DNA of 64,000 nucleotides, taken from the IMG/VR virus record IMGVR_UViG_3300011008_000028. One strand, given 5' to 3'. Positions 9,511 to 36,462 of the stretch are shown here, in pieces. The position numbers and the translations under genes are program-made. Positions within the stretch are counted from its first letter, which is position 1, and each line of letters opens with the position of its first letter. The notes below the pieces were generated by a model. It was not told the DNA's origin and ran no database searches. It was given only the letters and a program-made list of their open reading frames with translations. The DNA is from a virus. Taxonomy: Duplodnaviria; Caudoviricetes.

Positions 9511-9539
9511 ACCACACCCCGCACAGTGCGGGGTGTGGT
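9511..9539. terminator. Near-perfect palindrome (14-bp arms)
   Basis: accacaccccgcac-a-gtgcggggtgtggt. Confidence 0.65.
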
Positions 9540-9562
9540 CAGGTCTTGGACTATACTACACC

Positions 9563-9685
9563 GGTCGGTTTCAGGGAGAGGCGGGCGCCAATAGTCCAGT
9601 AGGAAACAGACACAGCATCATTCAGGTTGCAATAGAATGCACCAGCCTTAGCACCGTTATTCGAGTTACCACCGAATAGCGCCCC
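9563..9685 (-). repeat. DGR VR/TR-like repeat, copy 1 (orphan, intergenic)
   Basis: 123 nt, 106/123 identical to 34424..34546; translates GALFGGNSNNGAKAGAFYCNLNDAVSVSYWTIGARLSLKPT; in-frame TAA upstream and no start codon. Confidence 0.85.
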
Positions 9686-9778
9686 GTCCCATTGCCCACC
9701 ACCACACCGTATCCCGCCCGCCGATTTTTATAGGGGTATATTTGACTTTGGAGGACCGCATTTTCTTTTGATGAAATT

Positions 9779-9849: not shown

Positions 9850-11370
9850 ATGAAATCGAAAAGAATTTGTCGCGGCCAAGTATGGCATTGGAATGATCCA
9901 TTATATGGATCCAAAGCCACAGCATCCGAAACGCCTGATCCTGGTGAAAGCTGCATTCGTTATTCCAGGTATGTGTTGGTAATGCAAACAGAATCGAAGG
10001 ACCAGTCGATACTGGTAATCCCGCTGAGCACAAAGTATGTTGGTACTACTGACTATCGTATTCCTATCACAAAAGAAAAATATGAGACGTTCTCATATGC
10101 CAGAATTGACAGAATATATCCGGTATATCCGGAACAGCTGAATGAGTATATTTGTACATTATCGGATGATTATATGAAGCTGATTGAGGCAGAAACAATA
10201 CGGCTGCTTTGCCCGACAGTATACACTAACACGGAAGTCGCTAAGATCCTGATTGAGCAGGATCTCCCGCTTGACAGAGTATCTGAAGATGCATGGTATG
10301 ACGAAGAGAATGTTAATATGAATTTATCCAACATCATCGGGAAGTTCATCAAAGAATGTGTCTTTACATCTGCTAGGGATTCCGTATATGCAACGACACT
10401 GTACAACGCATATTCAGTGTGGTGTTATAAGAAGGGCAATGACTACATCCCGCCGGAAAAGAAGAACTTGTTCTGTGACCTGTTCTGCATCATGATGCAT
10501 CTTGACAAGCAGCAGAACTATGACAACTATCTTATCAAGAATATCCGGATCGATAATATCGACTTCGAAGATGGTCCAATCGAGAAACAACCTATCGGCA
10601 TATCGAAAAAAGACGAACTGAAGAAAGATGCTATAGTAGTTTCGAATAGAGAGCCCGATAACCGTGCGAAGGATTCCAACAAGAAGAACCATTGGACTGA
10701 AAAGAAGAAGAGAGCATTCATGGCATTCGTTGAAACTCATACAGCAGCCGAGGCAGCATCCAAGTATGAAATATCAATTAACTCGGTTTACAAATACAAG
10801 AAAGCATTCCAGCCGATCATCGACGATGACGAGATAGTGTTACTGGACGCCGATCAGATAGTAGATAATACTGCTGTAATGGATGTTGTAAAGAATACAT
10901 TGTCAGCTGTGTCTAACTTCATCAAGGAAGATGTTGATACCAACGATGCATACAGATATCTGAAGACTGAGGGGACCGGTAAAGATGTTAATATCGGCAA
11001 GAAGGAATTCTATAAGATGATCTCTGCTTCGGTATATTACTCTCTGATGCAATTCCTGGAGATTACAGAAGACTATACAACCAAAGCATTGGTGTCTCCG
11101 ACCCCAGGAACTCTGGTTGAGAGCAGAAACTATCTTTCGATAGCTAATTTGTATCTCATGATTAAACAACTCATGACACCATATGAGATTCGAAATACAA
11201 TCAAGAGAGATAATGGCGGTATTAGCAGAAACTGGATCAACTATCTTACCAACCAGCTGTCAAACCGGCTTCCACTTTCACATACAGGCATTCAATCGAT
11301 CGTTGATATGATCGTAAATAATTACTGTGAATCGAAAGAAGCCCCCCCCCTCATCCGTAAAATAGCATAA
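9850..11370 (+). CDS. PemK/MazF-like N-terminal domain fused to putative DNA-binding domains
   Basis: RGQVWHW...SRYVLVMQ...ILVIPLSTK...ARIDRIYPV is PemK-like; central FIKEC...LYNAYSVWC is winged-helix-like; AAEAASKYEISINSVYKYKK is HTH-like. Confidence 0.6.
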   Translation: MKSKRICRGQVWHWNDPLYGSKATASETPDPGESCIRYSRYVLVMQTESKDQSILVIPLSTKYVGTTDYRIPITKEKYETFSYARIDRIYPVYPEQLNEYICTLSDDYMKLIEAETIRLLCPTVYTNTEVAKILIEQDLPLDRVSEDAWYDEENVNMNLSNIIGKFIKECVFTSARDSVYATTLYNAYSVWCYKKGNDYIPPEKKNLFCDLFCIMMHLDKQQNYDNYLIKNIRIDNIDFEDGPIEKQPIGISKKDELKKDAIVVSNREPDNRAKDSNKKNHWTEKKKRAFMAFVETHTAAEAASKYEISINSVYKYKKAFQPIIDDDEIVLLDADQIVDNTAVMDVVKNTLSAVSNFIKEDVDTNDAYRYLKTEGTGKDVNIGKKEFYKMISASVYYSLMQFLEITEDYTTKALVSPTPGTLVESRNYLSIANLYLMIKQLMTPYEIRNTIKRDNGGISRNWINYLTNQLSNRLPLSHTGIQSIVDMIVNNYCESKEAPPLIRKIA

Positions 11371-12045: not shown

Positions 12046-12121
12046 TGGCCTATAGTCAAGCGGTGAAGACAACAGACTTTGACTCTGTCACACGCTGGTT
12101 CGAATCCAGTTAGGCCAACCA
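12046..12121 (+). tRNA. tRNA-Gln(UUG)
   Basis: Acceptor tggccta/taggcca, anticodon arm acaga-ctTTGac-tctgt, GGTTCGAATCC, encoded CCA. Confidence 0.92.
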
Positions 12122-12158
12122 TAGGACACCCCCATTGGAAACAATGGGGTTTATATTT

Positions 12159-12235
12159 CGAGGCGTAGCGAAGCTTGGTATCGCGCTTGCTTTGGGAGCA
12201 AGAAGCCGCAGGTTCGAATCCTGTCGCCTCGACCA
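12159..12235 (+). tRNA. tRNA-Pro(UGG)
   Basis: Anticodon arm cttgc-ttTGGga-gcaag, T-loop, CCA. Confidence 0.93.
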
Positions 12236-12238
12236 AAT

Positions 12239-12322
12239 ACCGATGTGGTGAAATGGCAGACACAAATGACTCAAAATCATTCGCAGCAATGCATATCGGT
12301 TCAAGTCCGATCATCGGTACCA
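12239..12322 (+). tRNA. tRNA-Leu(CAA)
   Basis: Anticodon arm aatga-ctCAAaa-tcatt, long variable arm, CCA. Confidence 0.9.
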
Positions 12323-12327
12323 ACCGT

Positions 12328-12410
12328 GCAGGTATGGCGGAACTGGCAGACGCACTGGATTTAGGTTCCAGCGAGAAATCGTAAGGGTTCGAGTCCCTTT
12401 ACCTGCACCA
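12328..12410 (+). tRNA. tRNA-Leu(UAG)
   Basis: Anticodon arm ctgga-ttTAGgt-tccag, long variable arm, CCA. Confidence 0.92.
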
Positions 12411-12422
12411 TTAATATTAATT

Positions 12423-12499
12423 GGTCCCGTAGTGAAGTGGTCTAACACGTCGCCCTTTCACGGCGAAGGCGGTGAGTTCGAATCTCCCCGGGATCACCA
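12423..12499 (+). tRNA. tRNA-Glu(UUC)
   Basis: Anticodon arm tcgcc-ctTTCac-ggcga, CCA. Confidence 0.92.
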
Positions 12500-12504
12500 T
12501 ATTT

Positions 12505-12591
12505 GGGCAAGTACGCATAGTGGCGATTGCAGCGGACTGTAAATCCGTCACGTAAGATACACCGTAGGTTCGACTCCTACCTTGCCCACCA
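12505..12591 (+). tRNA. tRNA-Tyr(GUA)
   Basis: Anticodon arm gcgga-ctGTAaa-tccgt, long variable arm, CCA. Confidence 0.92.
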
Positions 12592-22853: not shown

Positions 22854-23207
22854 ATGTACGAAGCTAAAGAACACGAGAAGCTTTTCGGTGTTCGTCCTAT
22901 CGGAGTGAAGTTCATATGCCCATTCTGTAATGAGGGTGAGATGAAGTCTGATCTTGACAACCCAGAACGTATGCCTCATATGTTCCCTCACAAGTGTACA
23001 AAGTGTGCTAAGACAATGCAACTCAACAAGGTATACCCATATATTGAATGGGATGAAATCACCGAAGAAGAGACTAAGAATGATTTCGTTGATGCACTGA
23101 ATGAGGTAATGGGAAAGTTCAATACGTTAATGGAACAGAAGGAGGCCAATCATGATACACATGACGCAACCGGAATTCATATGGAAGATGAAGTCGAAGG
23201 GGATTGA
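22854..23207 (+). CDS. Zinc-ribbon protein
   Basis: CPFC...HKCTKC; AAGGAG RBS before ATG 22854. Confidence 0.6.
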   Translation: MYEAKEHEKLFGVRPIGVKFICPFCNEGEMKSDLDNPERMPHMFPHKCTKCAKTMQLNKVYPYIEWDEITEEETKNDFVDALNEVMGKFNTLMEQKEANHDTHDATGIHMEDEVEGD

Positions 23208-31050: not shown

Positions 31051-33789
31051 ATGAGTGAATTAAGAAATAAACGCGTCCAAGTAATCCGTACATATATCGA
31101 TCCTACTGCACCGTCCATACCGGTGTATGATTACGATGAAATATATCCGGTTACTACATATGACGCAGTCCGGAAAACAACGGACGAATATTCAACCACA
31201 CTTACAGCCGAGCTTGAAGCAATATACAGACTGATTTCAGAGAAACAGGAAAAGGTCTTTGGCGGAACAAATGGTACACTCATGACATGGACAACTTCTG
31301 CCGGTGTCATTGGTGAGACCGAAATTGTTCGTACCATTGCATCAGAGCCATCTGATCGTTCGTACAAAAAAGTTGTTTCGGAGCGAGCAGCGGGTGCAGC
31401 ACTTGATCTCAAGGTTGGGTATACTGATTTCAATTCTCATGTTCGAGATGGTGATATTCATATCACTGCTGCAGAACGTAGCAGATGGAATGAAATGACA
31501 CCTATCTCTGCGTTCAGAGAACACAGTGGAGATTCTGATATTCATATTACAGCAGAAGAACGGACAGAATGGAATGCGAAAGCATCCCAGTCCGATTTTG
31601 ATTCTCATCTTGCGAATAAGAATAACCCACACTCTGTAACAGCTCATCAGATCGGTGCATATACCCGTTCTGAAATTGATGAACTCTTTGCCAATATCAG
31701 AGAGACATTCTTCAACTACAGAAACATCCAGTATGATGACAGACGGAATATTGCAACATTGGAAGAATATGATCCTGAAGCATGGAATCCGAACTACGTC
31801 CTAGCATATGGAGATGCTCTACCTGAGCCTTCTAATACAGCGTTGACGTATTTCGCCCTTCGTCCATTGACGGACTACTCTCTGAATGAGACTCAGGACT
31901 GTACCATCTGGATGAAGAAGCCGGGTCTTGCATGGCAGAACGTTGGTCTTGTTTCAATGGAAGCTGGAGACATGGTTATCCGTTATCCAGATACGACAAT
32001 GTGTGTATGGCTTCAGGGTAGATTCGTTAGTATCTATACAGGATCATCTGCAGTTGCATCAGGCTCTACTGGAAGTTCCGGACTTATATGGAAACCAGTA
32101 GTACGGGAGATAGATGGTGTTCGTTATCTGTCGTTCGTACTTAGTGCAGAGACAGAGGCTCCAGATCTGATCGATATCTCTGGTACTCCTGGTTATACAC
32201 CTATCAAAGGTGTGGATTATTTCGATGGAGCATCTGGACTAGGAGTTCCTTCTGGTGGTGCTGTAAATGATATCATGATCAAATCCACCAGCAAAGATTA
32301 TGATGTGGAATGGATATCGTTTGAGAATTTCATCACACAGTATGTCGCCAATGGTGGTACACTCCCGGCAGCGAATGCAAGATGGGATTCCATAACCGGA
32401 AGACCGATGGTTTACCAAGCCACGGGTCATGATAACACTGCGCTGATGTCTCAGGATGCTATTACCAATGAAATTGAATCGATAACAGCTAGAATCAATC
32501 AGATCATTAGTACTATCAATTCATCATCTGGTATTGCCGGTCTTACAGAAATCATCAACAACCATATTCTGAATCATAACAATCCACATGACATTACAGC
32601 TGTTGCAATAGGAGCAGTGTCCACTGATGAATTCATGAATCATAGCTTGAATAAGAATAACCCGCATAATGTTACAGCGGCACAGATCGGTTTAGGGAAC
32701 GTTGATAATACTCGTGATATCGATAAGCCTATATCGACACAGGTACAGGATGCCCTGACTAACATCAGGTCGGATATATCCAACATCAATGATGCTCTCA
32801 ATGGTGATCAGGTACTATCGAATGTACGGTGGAATTCTTCGAACTGTACACTGACGTTTATGTTCAGGGATGAAAGCGAAATGGATGTTGAGATTCCGTT
32901 GATCGATATATTCAGGACATTTGAGTATGATGAAGTCAATAGTGAACTTCTGGTAGTTCTTCCGGATGGTTCTGAACATAGAATCAGTATCAGATCCTTA
33001 ATCACCAACTACAGAGGATCTGATTCTTCGAATATCAGACTCACTGTATCCAAAGGTATTATCCATGCAGAGATTCTGCCTAACTCAGTTGATGGATCGA
33101 TGATCCAGGAGTCGGTTGAACTCAGAGGAGCCCCGACTGCACCAACACAGTCTATTTATGATAAGAGCAACAAGCTTGCTACTACAAAGTGGGTGAAGGA
33201 TGCAACTGTAGACAATCTTGAATCTACGGAACAACAGCTTCCACTGAGCGCGAATATGGGCAGGATTCTGAATACTACCAAAGCATCCAGAGCAGATGTC
33301 CTACAGATGATTGCCGATTCTCCGATGCTGAATGTAATTGACAATCTTGGTGCAGAAGATTCTTATGCAGCTCTCAGTGCGAACATGGGCTTCGTATTGA
33401 ATGCGACGAAAGCGCCGTGGGTACATACGTCACCTTCTGGATCTACTTATGGCCGAGCAACAGTGAATCTGTTTGGTCATGCCAGAGCGTCTGACGTTGA
33501 TCCACTGATGGATGGAAACGTATTCATCGGTACGGACAACGGTTACTATGCAAGAGCAGACCACAGACACCCGTCTGATATCAATAAGGCTCCTGTACAT
33601 TGGCCCGATCCTGAAACAGGAATTGCATCGTTTACAGGTGAACCTAAGTCTACACTCCCGCCAGATGGAGACGAATCGGATAGAATTGCGACTACACTAT
33701 GGGTAGCACGGAATCCTTGCGTTACACCGTTAACATCAGACGAGATCAGGACGGTTGTATACACAGCCTGGGACGTTGCTAATAGATAA
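31051..33789 (+). CDS. Tail fibre protein
   Basis: Repeats HxxDxDIHITAxER (x2), HxxNxNNPHxVTAxxIG (x3), GLGNVDNT, DNL...LSANMG (x2), ARADHRHP. Confidence 0.75.
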   Translation: MSELRNKRVQVIRTYIDPTAPSIPVYDYDEIYPVTTYDAVRKTTDEYSTTLTAELEAIYRLISEKQEKVFGGTNGTLMTWTTSAGVIGETEIVRTIASEPSDRSYKKVVSERAAGAALDLKVGYTDFNSHVRDGDIHITAAERSRWNEMTPISAFREHSGDSDIHITAEERTEWNAKASQSDFDSHLANKNNPHSVTAHQIGAYTRSEIDELFANIRETFFNYRNIQYDDRRNIATLEEYDPEAWNPNYVLAYGDALPEPSNTALTYFALRPLTDYSLNETQDCTIWMKKPGLAWQNVGLVSMEAGDMVIRYPDTTMCVWLQGRFVSIYTGSSAVASGSTGSSGLIWKPVVREIDGVRYLSFVLSAETEAPDLIDISGTPGYTPIKGVDYFDGASGLGVPSGGAVNDIMIKSTSKDYDVEWISFENFITQYVANGGTLPAANARWDSITGRPMVYQATGHDNTALMSQDAITNEIESITARINQIISTINSSSGIAGLTEIINNHILNHNNPHDITAVAIGAVSTDEFMNHSLNKNNPHNVTAAQIGLGNVDNTRDIDKPISTQVQDALTNIRSDISNINDALNGDQVLSNVRWNSSNCTLTFMFRDESEMDVEIPLIDIFRTFEYDEVNSELLVVLPDGSEHRISIRSLITNYRGSDSSNIRLTVSKGIIHAEILPNSVDGSMIQESVELRGAPTAPTQSIYDKSNKLATTKWVKDATVDNLESTEQQLPLSANMGRILNTTKASRADVLQMIADSPMLNVIDNLGAEDSYAALSANMGFVLNATKAPWVHTSPSGSTYGRATVNLFGHARASDVDPLMDGNVFIGTDNGYYARADHRHPSDINKAPVHWPDPETGIASFTGEPKSTLPPDGDESDRIATTLWVARNPCVTPLTSDEIRTVVYTAWDVANR

Positions 33790-33804: not shown

Positions 33805-34317
33805 ATGAAGATGGAACTGGTTAGTTCATATGCAAAGATGATCAATGATGGTCTTTGTGTAATATCAGATCTACCGGAAATGTATAGGCAACCCGTCCAG
33901 GATTATATCGATAACCCTCCGGAGACTACAGTCAACAATGAAATCCATACTCCAGTTACAGCTCAAGAAGAAATCAATGGAGCTCTGTTTCTGGGAAATG
34001 GGGAATATAAAGTTCCCGTATCCGATACTACATATTGTGAAATCAAAATGGATGAGGTATTCCAAGAATATTCATCTCAAGGATACCCAATTCCGATCAA
34101 CCCAATATTCGGCATTACGATGGTCGAGAATACATTTGGCAAGTTCACAAGAACTCCGGTAGTCAATATAGCAAATAACCAATCAGGATGTGTATTGGCG
34201 GTAAAAGGAGAAATAACAAATGTGGTATCAGGGGATAAAGTTCTCAGGGTCGATCTCGGTATATCATCGGGTAACTATGAAGCGATGAGGTACACGGTAT
34301 ATATCAAAGCAAAATAA
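33805..34317 (+). CDS. Tail-fibre-associated protein
   Basis: Follows the fibre gene; N-terminal YAKMINDG..ISDLPEMYR..V small-domain pattern. Confidence 0.5.
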   Translation: MKMELVSSYAKMINDGLCVISDLPEMYRQPVQDYIDNPPETTVNNEIHTPVTAQEEINGALFLGNGEYKVPVSDTTYCEIKMDEVFQEYSSQGYPIPINPIFGITMVENTFGKFTRTPVVNIANNQSGCVLAVKGEITNVVSGDKVLRVDLGISSGNYEAMRYTVYIKAK

Positions 34318-34324
34318 TATTGTA

Positions 34325-34355
34325 AACACAACGCCCTCAATGAGGGCGTTGTGTT
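34325..34355. terminator. Palindrome after the fibre operon
   Basis: aacacaacgccctca-a-tgagggcgttgtgtt. Confidence 0.65.
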
Positions 34356-34423
34356 ATCTACCAAAAATAAAGTATACCATATAAAGCCGGGCGCCAGGGA
34401 TGGACGGGGCAGGATGTGGAATA

Positions 34424-34546
34424 GGGGCGCTATTCGGTGGTCACTCGGATCACGGTGCTAATGATGGTGCGTTCCGTTGCGACCTGGATAGTACTGTGTC
34501 TCATTCCTACTGGCATATTGGCGCCCGCCTCTCCCTGAAACCGACC
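34424..34546 (+). repeat. DGR VR/TR-like repeat, copy 2 (orphan, intergenic)
   Basis: Translates GALFGGHSDHGANDGAFRCDLDSTVSHSYWHIGARLSLKPT; 17 substitutions and no indels versus 9563..9685. Confidence 0.85.
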
Positions 34547-34605
34547 GCGGAAGGGAGAATGGGTGTCATGTTTATGGAGAGGACAAACGTAGAAGTGTAT
34601 CAAAG

Positions 34606-36462
34606 TTATACATATGCTTCGATCTCATCCTGGTGACTGGAATTGATATCGGCATCCATGAATATGCACTGATTACCAGATATCAGGATTTTGATCAGCT
34701 CTGTTGCTGCAGTAAGTACCATGGTATCTGTCTGGGAAGATGTTATTATTTTAGGATTATAATCACCTATTTCCAGATCAAATACTTCCTGTCTTTTTAC
34801 AGAGTCGTTCAGAATTTGATTTGTTTTCTGGTTGGCCATCTGTTTGAGTTCCGGTATACCGCCTTCATTGATTTTATTCCATAGTGGAATGGTCTTAAGT
34901 ATACCGGTATTATCCGGACCCCGGAGTACTCTGGCGTATGTGTCAAGAACTGCGCCGTATATCATATCGATGATCACATACTCAAGCTTACTGTCATCAT
35001 CTTTCAGATTTTCAAATTCCCCAAGGTCATCAATATACTCATTACATGCCTGGGCAATGGCCAGCTGGCATCCAGGTACAACACCGTACTTTACAGCCGA
35101 CTTAAGACATTTAATTACGTCATCTACGGCGGCTTCCAGTATCTGTTTCTGGAGATCCGAATCGGCACCGATGTAATACAGATAGTTCTTCATTTCTAAC
35201 TGCATTACACGGGTTCTGGCATCGTATACCTTTGCAGCCATGTTCTGTCTTTCAACATAGGTATGATCTTCGGCATCTTTGAGTTCTGCCAATGCACGCT
35301 GATATGCATTTTTATACAGATCATCTTCAAAGATATCCTTATTGGGATTGAAGATGGAACCGTTCTTCACCGATATGAGGACGGAATCACATTGGCCTAT
35401 TGCTCTCCAGAATTCATTGGTCGGGTCATCAATGGTCTCAACAAACATTTCTGGACCGACTTCTTCGATCTTCGCAATAATTGACTTCGAAAGTTCCGGT
35501 GTGATTACGCGGGTCTTCAGTATCGTTGCCAGATCATCAAGCTGGGAAGGAAGAAGCTTGGAAAGTCTGAACTGTGTGAGGACAAGATTCAGTCTACGGT
35601 ACTTCTGTGTCTCCAGGTTTATATACTGCTTCAGTACAGACTCCATGAAATATTCATCATATGCCGGGGCAAGTATTATCAGCTTTTTGCCCATATCGCG
35701 GAATATTTCATTCATTGGTCTGATGAAAGCGTTGAACTCATCTGTTGTGATTGAGTGGTTGCTGACAATGACCTTTACATCTGTCTCTGTAGAAGAGAGA
35801 TCCTGGTCACGGACATAAACCACATCAATTGCGTTTGCCGGGAATTCGAAGCCATTGATCTGCTCCAGATACGACTTATTTGTCAAGGAGTCTTTGATCT
35901 TGATTGCCGGACTCTTCGCTTCCTGATATGCCTTCGCTATCGAGTCTGATACTTCTTTGTTACCGTTGGATACCACATACGCAATACTATAGATAGTATC
36001 ATAATCTGAGGGATCGATCTGCTGTGCCTTTGCTTCAATTCTGGACTTAATGTTTGCTACTACCTTGTCCAAAGTTGCCGTGAGCTGTCTCGGAAGTCTA
36101 TACAGCATCGCAATATTTTCTTTATACTTCTCATACCTGCTAAACAGGTTGTGAGTAAGTGTGATCGCCGTGGTTGTACCGTCACCAACGGTATTGTTCA
36201 TCTTGGTACAAGGCTGCTTTATGAGGTTATATATCATTCTCTTGTAACGATTATGGAATATATATTTTGAGAGTATGGAATAGCCATCTTTAGTGGCTTC
36301 AATATTCATACCATCAAGAATGGTTGCAGAAGAACCAAGAGGACCAAGTGACTTAGACAGGTTGGTCGCAATGACGTTGAATACCTCCTGAGTTAACTTC
36401 TCGAAATCTTCCTGAGGTATAATATTAATATGATTTTCATTTGAGTACTTGAGTGCATTCAT
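34606..36462 (-). CDS. groEL: GroEL-like phage chaperonin
   Basis: SLGPLG, TKDGYSIL, VGDGTTTA, GVVPG motifs; 618 aa. Confidence 0.9.
   Translation of the reverse strand: MNALKYSNENHINIIPQEDFEKLTQEVFNVIATNLSKSLGPLGSSATILDGMNIEATKDGYSILSKYIFHNRYKRMIYNLIKQPCTKMNNTVGDGTTTAITLTHNLFSRYEKYKENIAMLYRLPRQLTATLDKVVANIKSRIEAKAQQIDPSDYDTIYSIAYVVSNGNKEVSDSIAKAYQEAKSPAIKIKDSLTNKSYLEQINGFEFPANAIDVVYVRDQDLSSTETDVKVIVSNHSITTDEFNAFIRPMNEIFRDMGKKLIILAPAYDEYFMESVLKQYINLETQKYRRLNLVLTQFRLSKLLPSQLDDLATILKTRVITPELSKSIIAKIEEVGPEMFVETIDDPTNEFWRAIGQCDSVLISVKNGSIFNPNKDIFEDDLYKNAYQRALAELKDAEDHTYVERQNMAAKVYDARTRVMQLEMKNYLYYIGADSDLQKQILEAAVDDVIKCLKSAVKYGVVPGCQLAIAQACNEYIDDLGEFENLKDDDSKLEYVIIDMIYGAVLDTYARVLRGPDNTGILKTIPLWNKINEGGIPELKQMANQKTNQILNDSVKRQEVFDLEIGDYNPKIITSSQTDTMVLTAATELIKILISGNQCIFMDADINSSHQDEIEAYV

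Follow-up and report, generated by a model that had tools for sequence, protein, structure and literature searches.

The 64-kb stretch of phage DNA analysed here (the window) encodes, among others, RusA, a DnaB-like helicase, and a tail fibre (31051-33789; Phage_fiber_rpt). The tail-fibre gene pair is closed by a 170-aa gene (33805-34317) and followed by a hairpin (34325..34355, + strand), read from the sequence, which separates the tail-fibre operon from a first repeat cassette. A scan with the terminator consensus did not call this hairpin, which is without a T run. A chaperonin-like gene lies at 34606-36462 on the minus strand, and the cassette occupies the interval between the hairpin and this gene. 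A second copy of the repeat lies about 25 kb to the left on the minus strand, beside a 506-aa ORF (9850-11370, +) with a PemK/MazF-like toxin domain (E 3e-7) that also weakly matches poxvirus-D5-like. Six tRNA genes (Gln, Pro, Leu, Leu, Glu, and Tyr) are clustered at 12046-12591 (+). These tRNAs were the only matches when the whole window was searched with Rfam, with no family found at the cassettes.

Realignment of the two copies, at 34424-34546 (+, copy 1) and 9563-9685 (-, copy 2), confirmed the 123-nt ungapped homology with 17 mismatches from which a preliminary description of this DNA had started. The adenine split given there also stood, with A in one copy at 14 of the 17 mismatched columns and in neither copy at the other 3, while its assignment to the copies had to be reversed: among those 14 columns, the 34.4-kb copy has the adenine in 5 and the 9.6-kb copy in 9. 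The last 30 nt at the 3' end are the same in both copies, as had been reported, and occur nowhere else in the window (shuffled sequences: 0 expected). No third copy of the 123-nt repeat was found in the window by a sensitive, low-stringency blastn search. Upstream, the homology between the copies runs past the 123 nt into a leader of about 65-75 nt. It was likewise correct that neither copy forms the C-terminus of a gene. Neither lies within a long ORF, and in the frame of the variable repeat (VR), which reads GALFGG...IGARLSLKPT, a TAA is found 14-20 codons upstream of both copies, the stop-to-stop frames being 83 and 58 aa long.

The window matches NODE_13 and NODE_131 of ENA ERZ3810914 and several contigs of JGI 3300010998 at 100% identity, the sole exception being a 41-nt indel. 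Contigs were joined through exact-protein look-ups; all of them are metagenome assemblies, prone to break at these repeats. NODE_13 (147,105 bp; its coordinate is the window coordinate minus 9572) begins inside copy 2 and finishes inside a VR that closes a 545-aa gene, and NODE_131 (41,662 bp) spans the left part of the window. Two IMG/VR contigs that both contain a reverse transcriptase gene, G001 (118.7 kb) and G002 (71.5 kb), share 99.99% identity. G001 extends past the end of NODE_13 and overlaps, at its end, with the far end of NODE_131, so that these three contigs close a map of about 297 kb, the genome of a jumbo phage. At the DNA level G001 and the window have only cassettes in common, and G001 was considered as a separate phage sharing just these; the idea was dropped, as its reverse transcriptase (RT) gene sits on NODE_13, which contains the window. 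No match was found when 12 kb of the window was compared with GenBank phages by megablast. A 27-mer of the 3' element had no matches in metagenome_contigs or genome_contigs, and its matches in viral_contigs were confined to contigs of the window phage. Outside the window, at about 68.8-72 kb in window coordinates (L156:9020-12182), the anaerobic ribonucleotide reductase (NRDD) is encoded by two ORFs, split by an HTH-domain gene in a manner that resembles an intron or homing element.

Diversity-generating retroelements (DGRs) are generally seen as machinery for rewriting gene ends. The preliminary description had recognised the repeats as DGR sequence, had found no RT close by, and had placed the target elsewhere. 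All of this was borne out: a tblastn search with the RT gave no hit within the window, and an RT, its template repeat (TR), and an in-gene VR are present in the same genome, with the RT about 121 kb to the right of copy 1. The RT gene (NODE_13 145246-146355) encodes 369 aa, is 100% identical to that of G001, and matches PF00078 (E 1e-21), although it reaches no NCBIfam cut-off. Its best solved relative is 8ub7_A (E 3e-24), which we take to be the BPP-1 enzyme, ahead of group II intron RTs. Motif 4 reads LGFYTSH, not the usual SQ; SH is among the motif-4 variants listed by Schillinger 2012 (PMC3521204). The RT clade reads LGFYTSH(W) at this motif, and the peptide pattern GFYTS[HQ]W is found in more than 550 viral contigs.

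About 235 nt separate the TR (91 nt, 27 adenines) from the start of the downstream RT gene, and the order of the locus is VR, ending a 536/545-aa gene, then TR, then the adjoining RT. The N-terminal part of this target resembles the tail fibre of the window. A model of its C-terminal domain (~200 residues, pLDDT 71) matched the DGR variable protein TaqVP (5vf4; Foldseek E 1.6e-4, probability 1.00), and the match to Mtd (1yu0) was weak. The canonical 545-aa target thus has its VR at the C-terminus, in a domain modelled as a C-type-lectin fold, and neither the window copies nor the other gene-less copies (orphans) are placed in this way. An accessory protein, Avd, is common among DGRs without being universal. 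None was recognised in this phage, in contrast to BPP-1: two small ORFs beside the locus, of 121 aa before the target and of 82 aa after the RT, have no Pfam or NCBIfam match.

Comparison with the TR indicates how the window copies arose. Mismatches to the TR number 13 in copy 1 and 9 in copy 2, and each of these falls at a TR adenine (13/13, P about 1e-8; 9/9, P about 6e-6), with none at the 64 non-A sites of the TR. Over the same 91 nt of TR homology, the in-gene VR has 13 mismatches at A sites and 1 at a non-A site, and the other orphans have 14-17 and 0, respectively. As their mismatches are restricted to TR adenines, the cassettes carry alleles made by adenine-mutagenic reverse transcription. 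The third, A-rich template that had been postulated as the common source of the two copies was therefore located: the TR has A at all 17 columns at which the copies differ. That neither copy served as template for the other was also upheld. A VR-type 3' element of 21 nt follows the shared GGCGCC in the copies and in the in-gene VR, and is the point at which the TR diverges. The copies thus have the 3' element of a VR and no TR tail, and are therefore target-type repeats, not templates.

This bears directly on the earlier suggestion that the copies are stand-alone template RNAs, or additional TRs. Their location outside genes would suit such a role, as TRs usually lie outside genes (PMC8144416). 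Yet a TR would be an A-rich master, with its tail and spacer beside an RT, while the window copies have 9-13 fewer adenines than the TR's 27, end in the VR-type element instead of the tail and spacer adjoining the RT, and have no RT within 64 kb; the true TR sits next to the RT gene. We consider additional templates to be scarcely credible. Rather, the window repeats are gene-less DGR VR cassettes, served by a distant TR and RT. In BPP-1, the IMH together with a hairpin was enough to make a foreign gene a target, with no need for sequence upstream of the VR (PMC3240598). By analogy with that standard, the cassettes would qualify as complete target modules.

Cassette 1 opens with a type-1 leader (34361..34426, +), common to the cassettes G1_92176 and G1_118550 of G001. 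It consists of an AT-rich part with the in-frame TAA (34361-34385) and a G-rich part (34386-34426) in which there are four G3+ tracts and whose sequence complements the 3' element. The duplex of leader and tail was calculated at -33.9 kcal/mol, compared with -25.2 +/- 4.4 for shuffled leaders. The VR follows at 34427..34525 (+), where 34435-34525 are the 91 TR-homologous nt and 34427-34434 are common to the other VRs and not to the TR. The 3' element (34526..34546, +) is IMH-like, identical across the full cassettes and the in-gene VR, and different in the TR. The cassette is completed by the type-1 tail and the right arm of a palindrome (34547..34572, +), the tail being 34547-34560. In NODE_13, a perfect 40-nt palindrome with a 20-bp stem lies 25 nt after the 3' element (L035:3758-3798). 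The window is without 41 nt of this palindrome and has kept only the right arm, with ATG microhomology at the junction (34561/34562).

Cassette 2 has the same architecture on the minus strand. Its type-2 leader (9683..9756), common to G1_23190 and to N131_10820 of NODE_131, is made up of an AT-rich part (9756-9723), where the in-frame TAA occupies 9730-9728, and a G-rich part (9722-9683) that begins with 8 nt exactly complementary to 8 nt of the GC-rich 3' element. RNAfold predicts that the stem of leader and 3' element closes the VR. The VR spans 9584..9682, TR-homologous at 9674-9584, and is followed by a 3' element (9563..9583) identical to that of cassette 1 and by the type-2 tail and hairpin (9511..9562). 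The tail (9562-9543) recurs downstream of the orphan at the NODE_131 end, and the hairpin, of 11 bp and GC-rich (about 9539-9511), begins 24 nt past the 3' element. An 11-mer, CCAAAGTCAAA, which lies 27 nt upstream of the TR (G001 about 10272, -), also starts the type-2 leaders; the type-1 leaders begin with the similar CCAAAAATAAA.

Cassettes of this kind are dispersed through the genome, as the preliminary description had proposed from two copies. At least eight gene-less cassettes were found, including the two in the window, and no cassette lies in a gene. The further members fill six rows of our list, G1_118550, at the end of G001, and its 3' continuation at the far end of NODE_131 being entered separately. 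The others are N131_10820, which precedes the left end of the window by about 1.2 kb; a cassette at about window coordinate 82.2 kb (L157:8368-8489, -; the 82-kb cassette); G1_23190 in G001; and the pair G1_71592 and G1_92176, counted as one (G001 71592-71704, -, and 92176-92337, +). They share a layout of leader, VR of ~100 nt, VR-type 3' element, and tail of ~20 nt, in most cases followed by a locus-specific hairpin. In most full cassettes these hairpins, with stems of 11-20 bp and differing sequences, start 24-27 nt past the 3' element; the spacing at the in-gene VR is 32 nt. The large genes beside the orphans are related neither to one another nor to the target, and the orphans are therefore not obviously stumps of deleted targets.

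Could the cassettes be coding after all, through small ORFs, an alternative code, or recoding, or could they be chimeras of assembly? Copy 1 does contain a possible ATG ORF of 78 aa, the contigs of all assemblies break at some cassettes, and G001 is anomalous at three. Against coding, no start codon is present in the type-2 leaders, and one type-1 paralogue has its ATG frame interrupted by a 1-nt indel. The stops that block the VR frame are TAA, and the long ORFs across the whole window use the standard code (table 11). Moreover, about 45 residues are too few for a C-type-lectin fold, which requires a domain of ~200 residues such as that modelled for the target. Against an artefact, copies 1 and 2 are the same, with their unique flanks, in three assemblies. 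Both possibilities together seem to us very improbable.

The leaders are distinctive. Over 183 kb scanned (the 64-kb window and the 118.7 kb of G001), G-quadruplex-type motifs, defined as four G3+ tracts with loops of <=15 nt, were found in cassette leaders only, at 34389-34427 (+) and 9719-9688 (-) in the window and at 23156, 92203, and 118577 in G001. Among the orphans, duplexes of the G-rich leader with the C-rich 3' element amount to -20 to -38 kcal/mol, 1-2.5 SD beyond shuffled leaders, and no such complementarity was found for the in-gene VR. Scans with sigma-70 and terminator consensus sequences gave nothing at the cassettes or their leaders. The AT-rich leader motif was also considered as a recurrent promoter of the phage and was rejected as such.

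Several cassettes are damaged or rearranged. G002 is without 137 nt of G1_23190, the missing segment lying between GGCG microhomologies. In the 82-kb cassette the leader has been shortened by a deletion and the 3' element is truncated; a new tail of 13 nt, followed by a 16-bp hairpin, is an inverted repeat of its own leader, as if it had come from a fold-back event. The G001 pair (71592-71704 and 92176-92337) represents one allele inverted, with 75 identical nt at a distance of 20.5 kb; the leader is present in one copy only, and the 3' element with its tail only in the other. The start of G002 falls at this site and has the arrangement intact, and the pair would be either an inversion isomer or an assembly chimera.

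The leader motifs and the fold-back tail raise the question of whether the cassettes act in cis as structures, with no coding store involved: as stem-loops or G-quadruplexes, they would titrate the cDNA or RT of the DGR, or would mark boundaries in replication or transcription. The complementarity of leader and tail in the orphans and its absence from the in-gene VR, the changed tail of the 82-kb cassette, and the restriction of G-quadruplex-type motifs to leaders are all in line with such a decoy role. The folds of whole cassettes are ordinary, however (RNAfold z about -1, one cassette excepted), and no Rfam family was matched. In addition, cassettes of a related phage described below (G007) have AT-rich leaders without such motifs, and their reading frame is still open. 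A purely structural function is therefore improbable in our view.

The cassettes also share parts in a way that suggests exchange. Two leaders (L1, L2) and two tails (T1, T2) are found in each of the four possible pairings: L1-T1 in copy 1, L2-T2 in copy 2, L2-T1 in N131_10820, and L1-T2 in the orphan at the ends of G001 and NODE_131. N131_10820 has the 3' half of the VR and the tail in common with copy 1, including nine non-TR bases, and a 5' half of its own. Partial retrohoming, which in BPP-1 reportedly runs from the 3' end, should produce the reverse arrangement. The L1-T2 orphan carries the expressed VR allele over at least 76 nt, followed by its own tail and palindrome, in three assemblies. 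Contig breaks fall exactly at cassettes with such twins, as expected if the shared tracts are real. Taken together, the combinations of leaders and tails, the common half-alleles, and the presence of the expressed allele in one orphan show that the cassettes recombine. The alleles were the same in every assembly compared, for the orphans as well as the gene, and thus give no sign of current activity or switching; the protein cluster of the target has two members only, and the gene has no other allele on record.

A second case was found among five related large contigs that were examined. One of these (G003) is uninformative, having only ~260 nt between its RT and the end of the contig; three others, which together with G003 form a set of 90-141 kb, have the canonical single VR only. 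Of the four informative contigs, only G007 (IMGVR_UViG_3300033463_000006; L143-L155; 244 kb, 99% complete, RT 45% identical) has extra VRs. This second jumbo phage contains about 50 gene-less VRs, grouped in about 12 tandem arrays whose period is about 155-165 nt, in addition to two in-gene VRs. Each gene-less cassette corresponds to the last ~55 codons of the target gene, and there is 1 stop in 2150 in-frame codons, compared with 14 and 151 in the other two frames. There are no frameshifts; in six cassettes the codon register is not the standard one, and these too remain readable in frame. At a pS of 0.31, scaffold residues are still near-invariant, and dN/dS is 0.55 at scaffold codons and 1.0 at TR-adenine codons. 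Such conservation of the frame is what one would expect if the sequences come under selection when they serve as coding donors. The orphans of G007 differ from the TR at 2-22 non-adenine sites, and the two in-gene VRs at none. From this drift, the DGR does not seem to rewrite the orphans there.

The G007 cassettes weigh on what we regard as a serious rival, namely that the cassettes are neutral relics: functionless partial duplicates of target 3' ends, produced by recombination or repair at a site that is often nicked or invaded by the DGR, tolerated by a large genome, and kept TR-like by occasional retrohoming or gene conversion. Decay between near-identical genomes is what this predicts, and the 137-nt and 41-nt deletions, the truncated 3' element, and the deleted leader are of that kind. 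The cassettes are also non-coding, no promoter consensus was found, and most orphans of G007 have drifted at non-adenine sites. It accounts less well for some 50 cassettes in frame with near-invariant scaffolds at the divergence given above, for the retention of the 3' element and of a hairpin at constant spacing in most full cassettes despite differing hairpin sequences, and for G-rich leaders that hold the only G-quadruplex-type motifs in 183 kb. We consider neutral relics rather unlikely, while granting that they take the larger part of whatever likelihood the alternative below leaves.

That alternative is that the cassettes form a store of alleles of the tail-fibre tip, which would exchange with the expressed gene by homologous gene conversion, adding recall and reshuffling to the random writing of the DGR. 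It is modestly favoured over neutral relics because of the frame conservation in G007, the constant spacing of the hairpins, and the special leaders, and we put it forward tentatively. The silent donor cassettes that the preliminary description had offered as a second possibility are plausible in this light: one orphan has its whole allele in common with the expressed VR, the cassettes are mosaics, and the G007 cassettes conserve their frame, all of which is indirect evidence. Several observations count against it. No transfer from an orphan to the gene was observed, with every assembly carrying the same alleles; beyond the VR, orphans and gene are homologous over a short distance, 15 nt on the upstream side and about 23 nt on the downstream side; cassettes have been lost or damaged, as in G002, the window palindrome, and the 82-kb cassette; the leaders show no promoter consensus; and the G007 orphans have drifted.

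As to how alleles entered the cassettes, direct retrohoming would be the probable route by analogy, all cis elements that are sufficient in BPP-1 being present. Gene conversion from the expressed VR is a somewhat less probable route, although it is compatible with the allele shared between gene and orphan, with G007, and with the 82-kb cassette. More speculative, and rather doubtful as a whole, is a two-tier system of receptor-binding diversity in jumbo phages, in which the DGR would write random variants, a genome-wide gene-less library would store them, and gene conversion would trade whole or half alleles with the tail-fibre gene, possibly beginning at the G-quadruplex-prone, self-complementary leaders. 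Overall, we lean, if only slightly, towards gene-less, recombining VR cassettes that may serve as an allele store for the tail-fibre gene as the best explanation of the data.

The closest known counterpart is the target module of BPP-1 (mtd VR, IMH, and hairpin/cruciform; Guo et al. 2011, PMC3240598). In both systems VR and TR differ at adenines only, a 3' element tells VR from TR, a hairpin lies downstream, and the target is of the tail-fibre type with a C-type-lectin fold. Unlike in BPP-1, the module of the window phage also occurs without a gene, at least eight times over ~300 kb, and the leaders of its cassettes are G-rich and complement the 3' element; a gap of 24-27 nt precedes the hairpin, which in BPP-1 follows the element immediately. 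DGRs with multiple or remote targets (PMC3521204; Wu et al. 2018, PMC5758913; cyanobacterial, PMC7517822) likewise combine one TR and RT with several VRs, some of them far away. There, however, the VRs end paralogous genes, whereas in the window phage gene-less copies outnumber genes and recombine.

Surveys accordingly describe several or remote VRs as sited in genes (PMC3521204, PMC5758913, PMC6642488). The only gene-less VR that we found in print is one of four in Pelodictyon phaeoclathratiforme, in a one-sentence mention. Our full-text search of the literature found no family of gene-less VRs described, and no published description of a dispersed, gene-less cassette layout. To our knowledge, surveys discard or ignore repeats outside genes.

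A further likeness is to silent-cassette antigenic variation, as in Neisseria pilE/pilS, with its G4 element, and Borrelia vlsE/vls. There, too, partial copies without promoters keep an open frame and form mosaics, the allele of the expression site is shared, and a G-quadruplex-type motif is linked to the system. The source of diversity differs, being reverse transcription in the window phage and inherited differences between cassettes in pilS and vls. The G-rich motif is also placed differently, at the silent copies in the window phage and not at the expressed gene.

These cassettes matter for DGR detection pipelines, for metagenome assembly, which breaks at them, and for directed evolution with DGR target modules. 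Gene-less target modules would show that sequence made by a DGR is kept, and probably rewritten, in DNA that does not code for protein. Hypermutation and cassette recombination may be joined in one system, which bears on how large phages change hosts. If the two-tier reading were true, such a phage would carry a memory of its past specificities.
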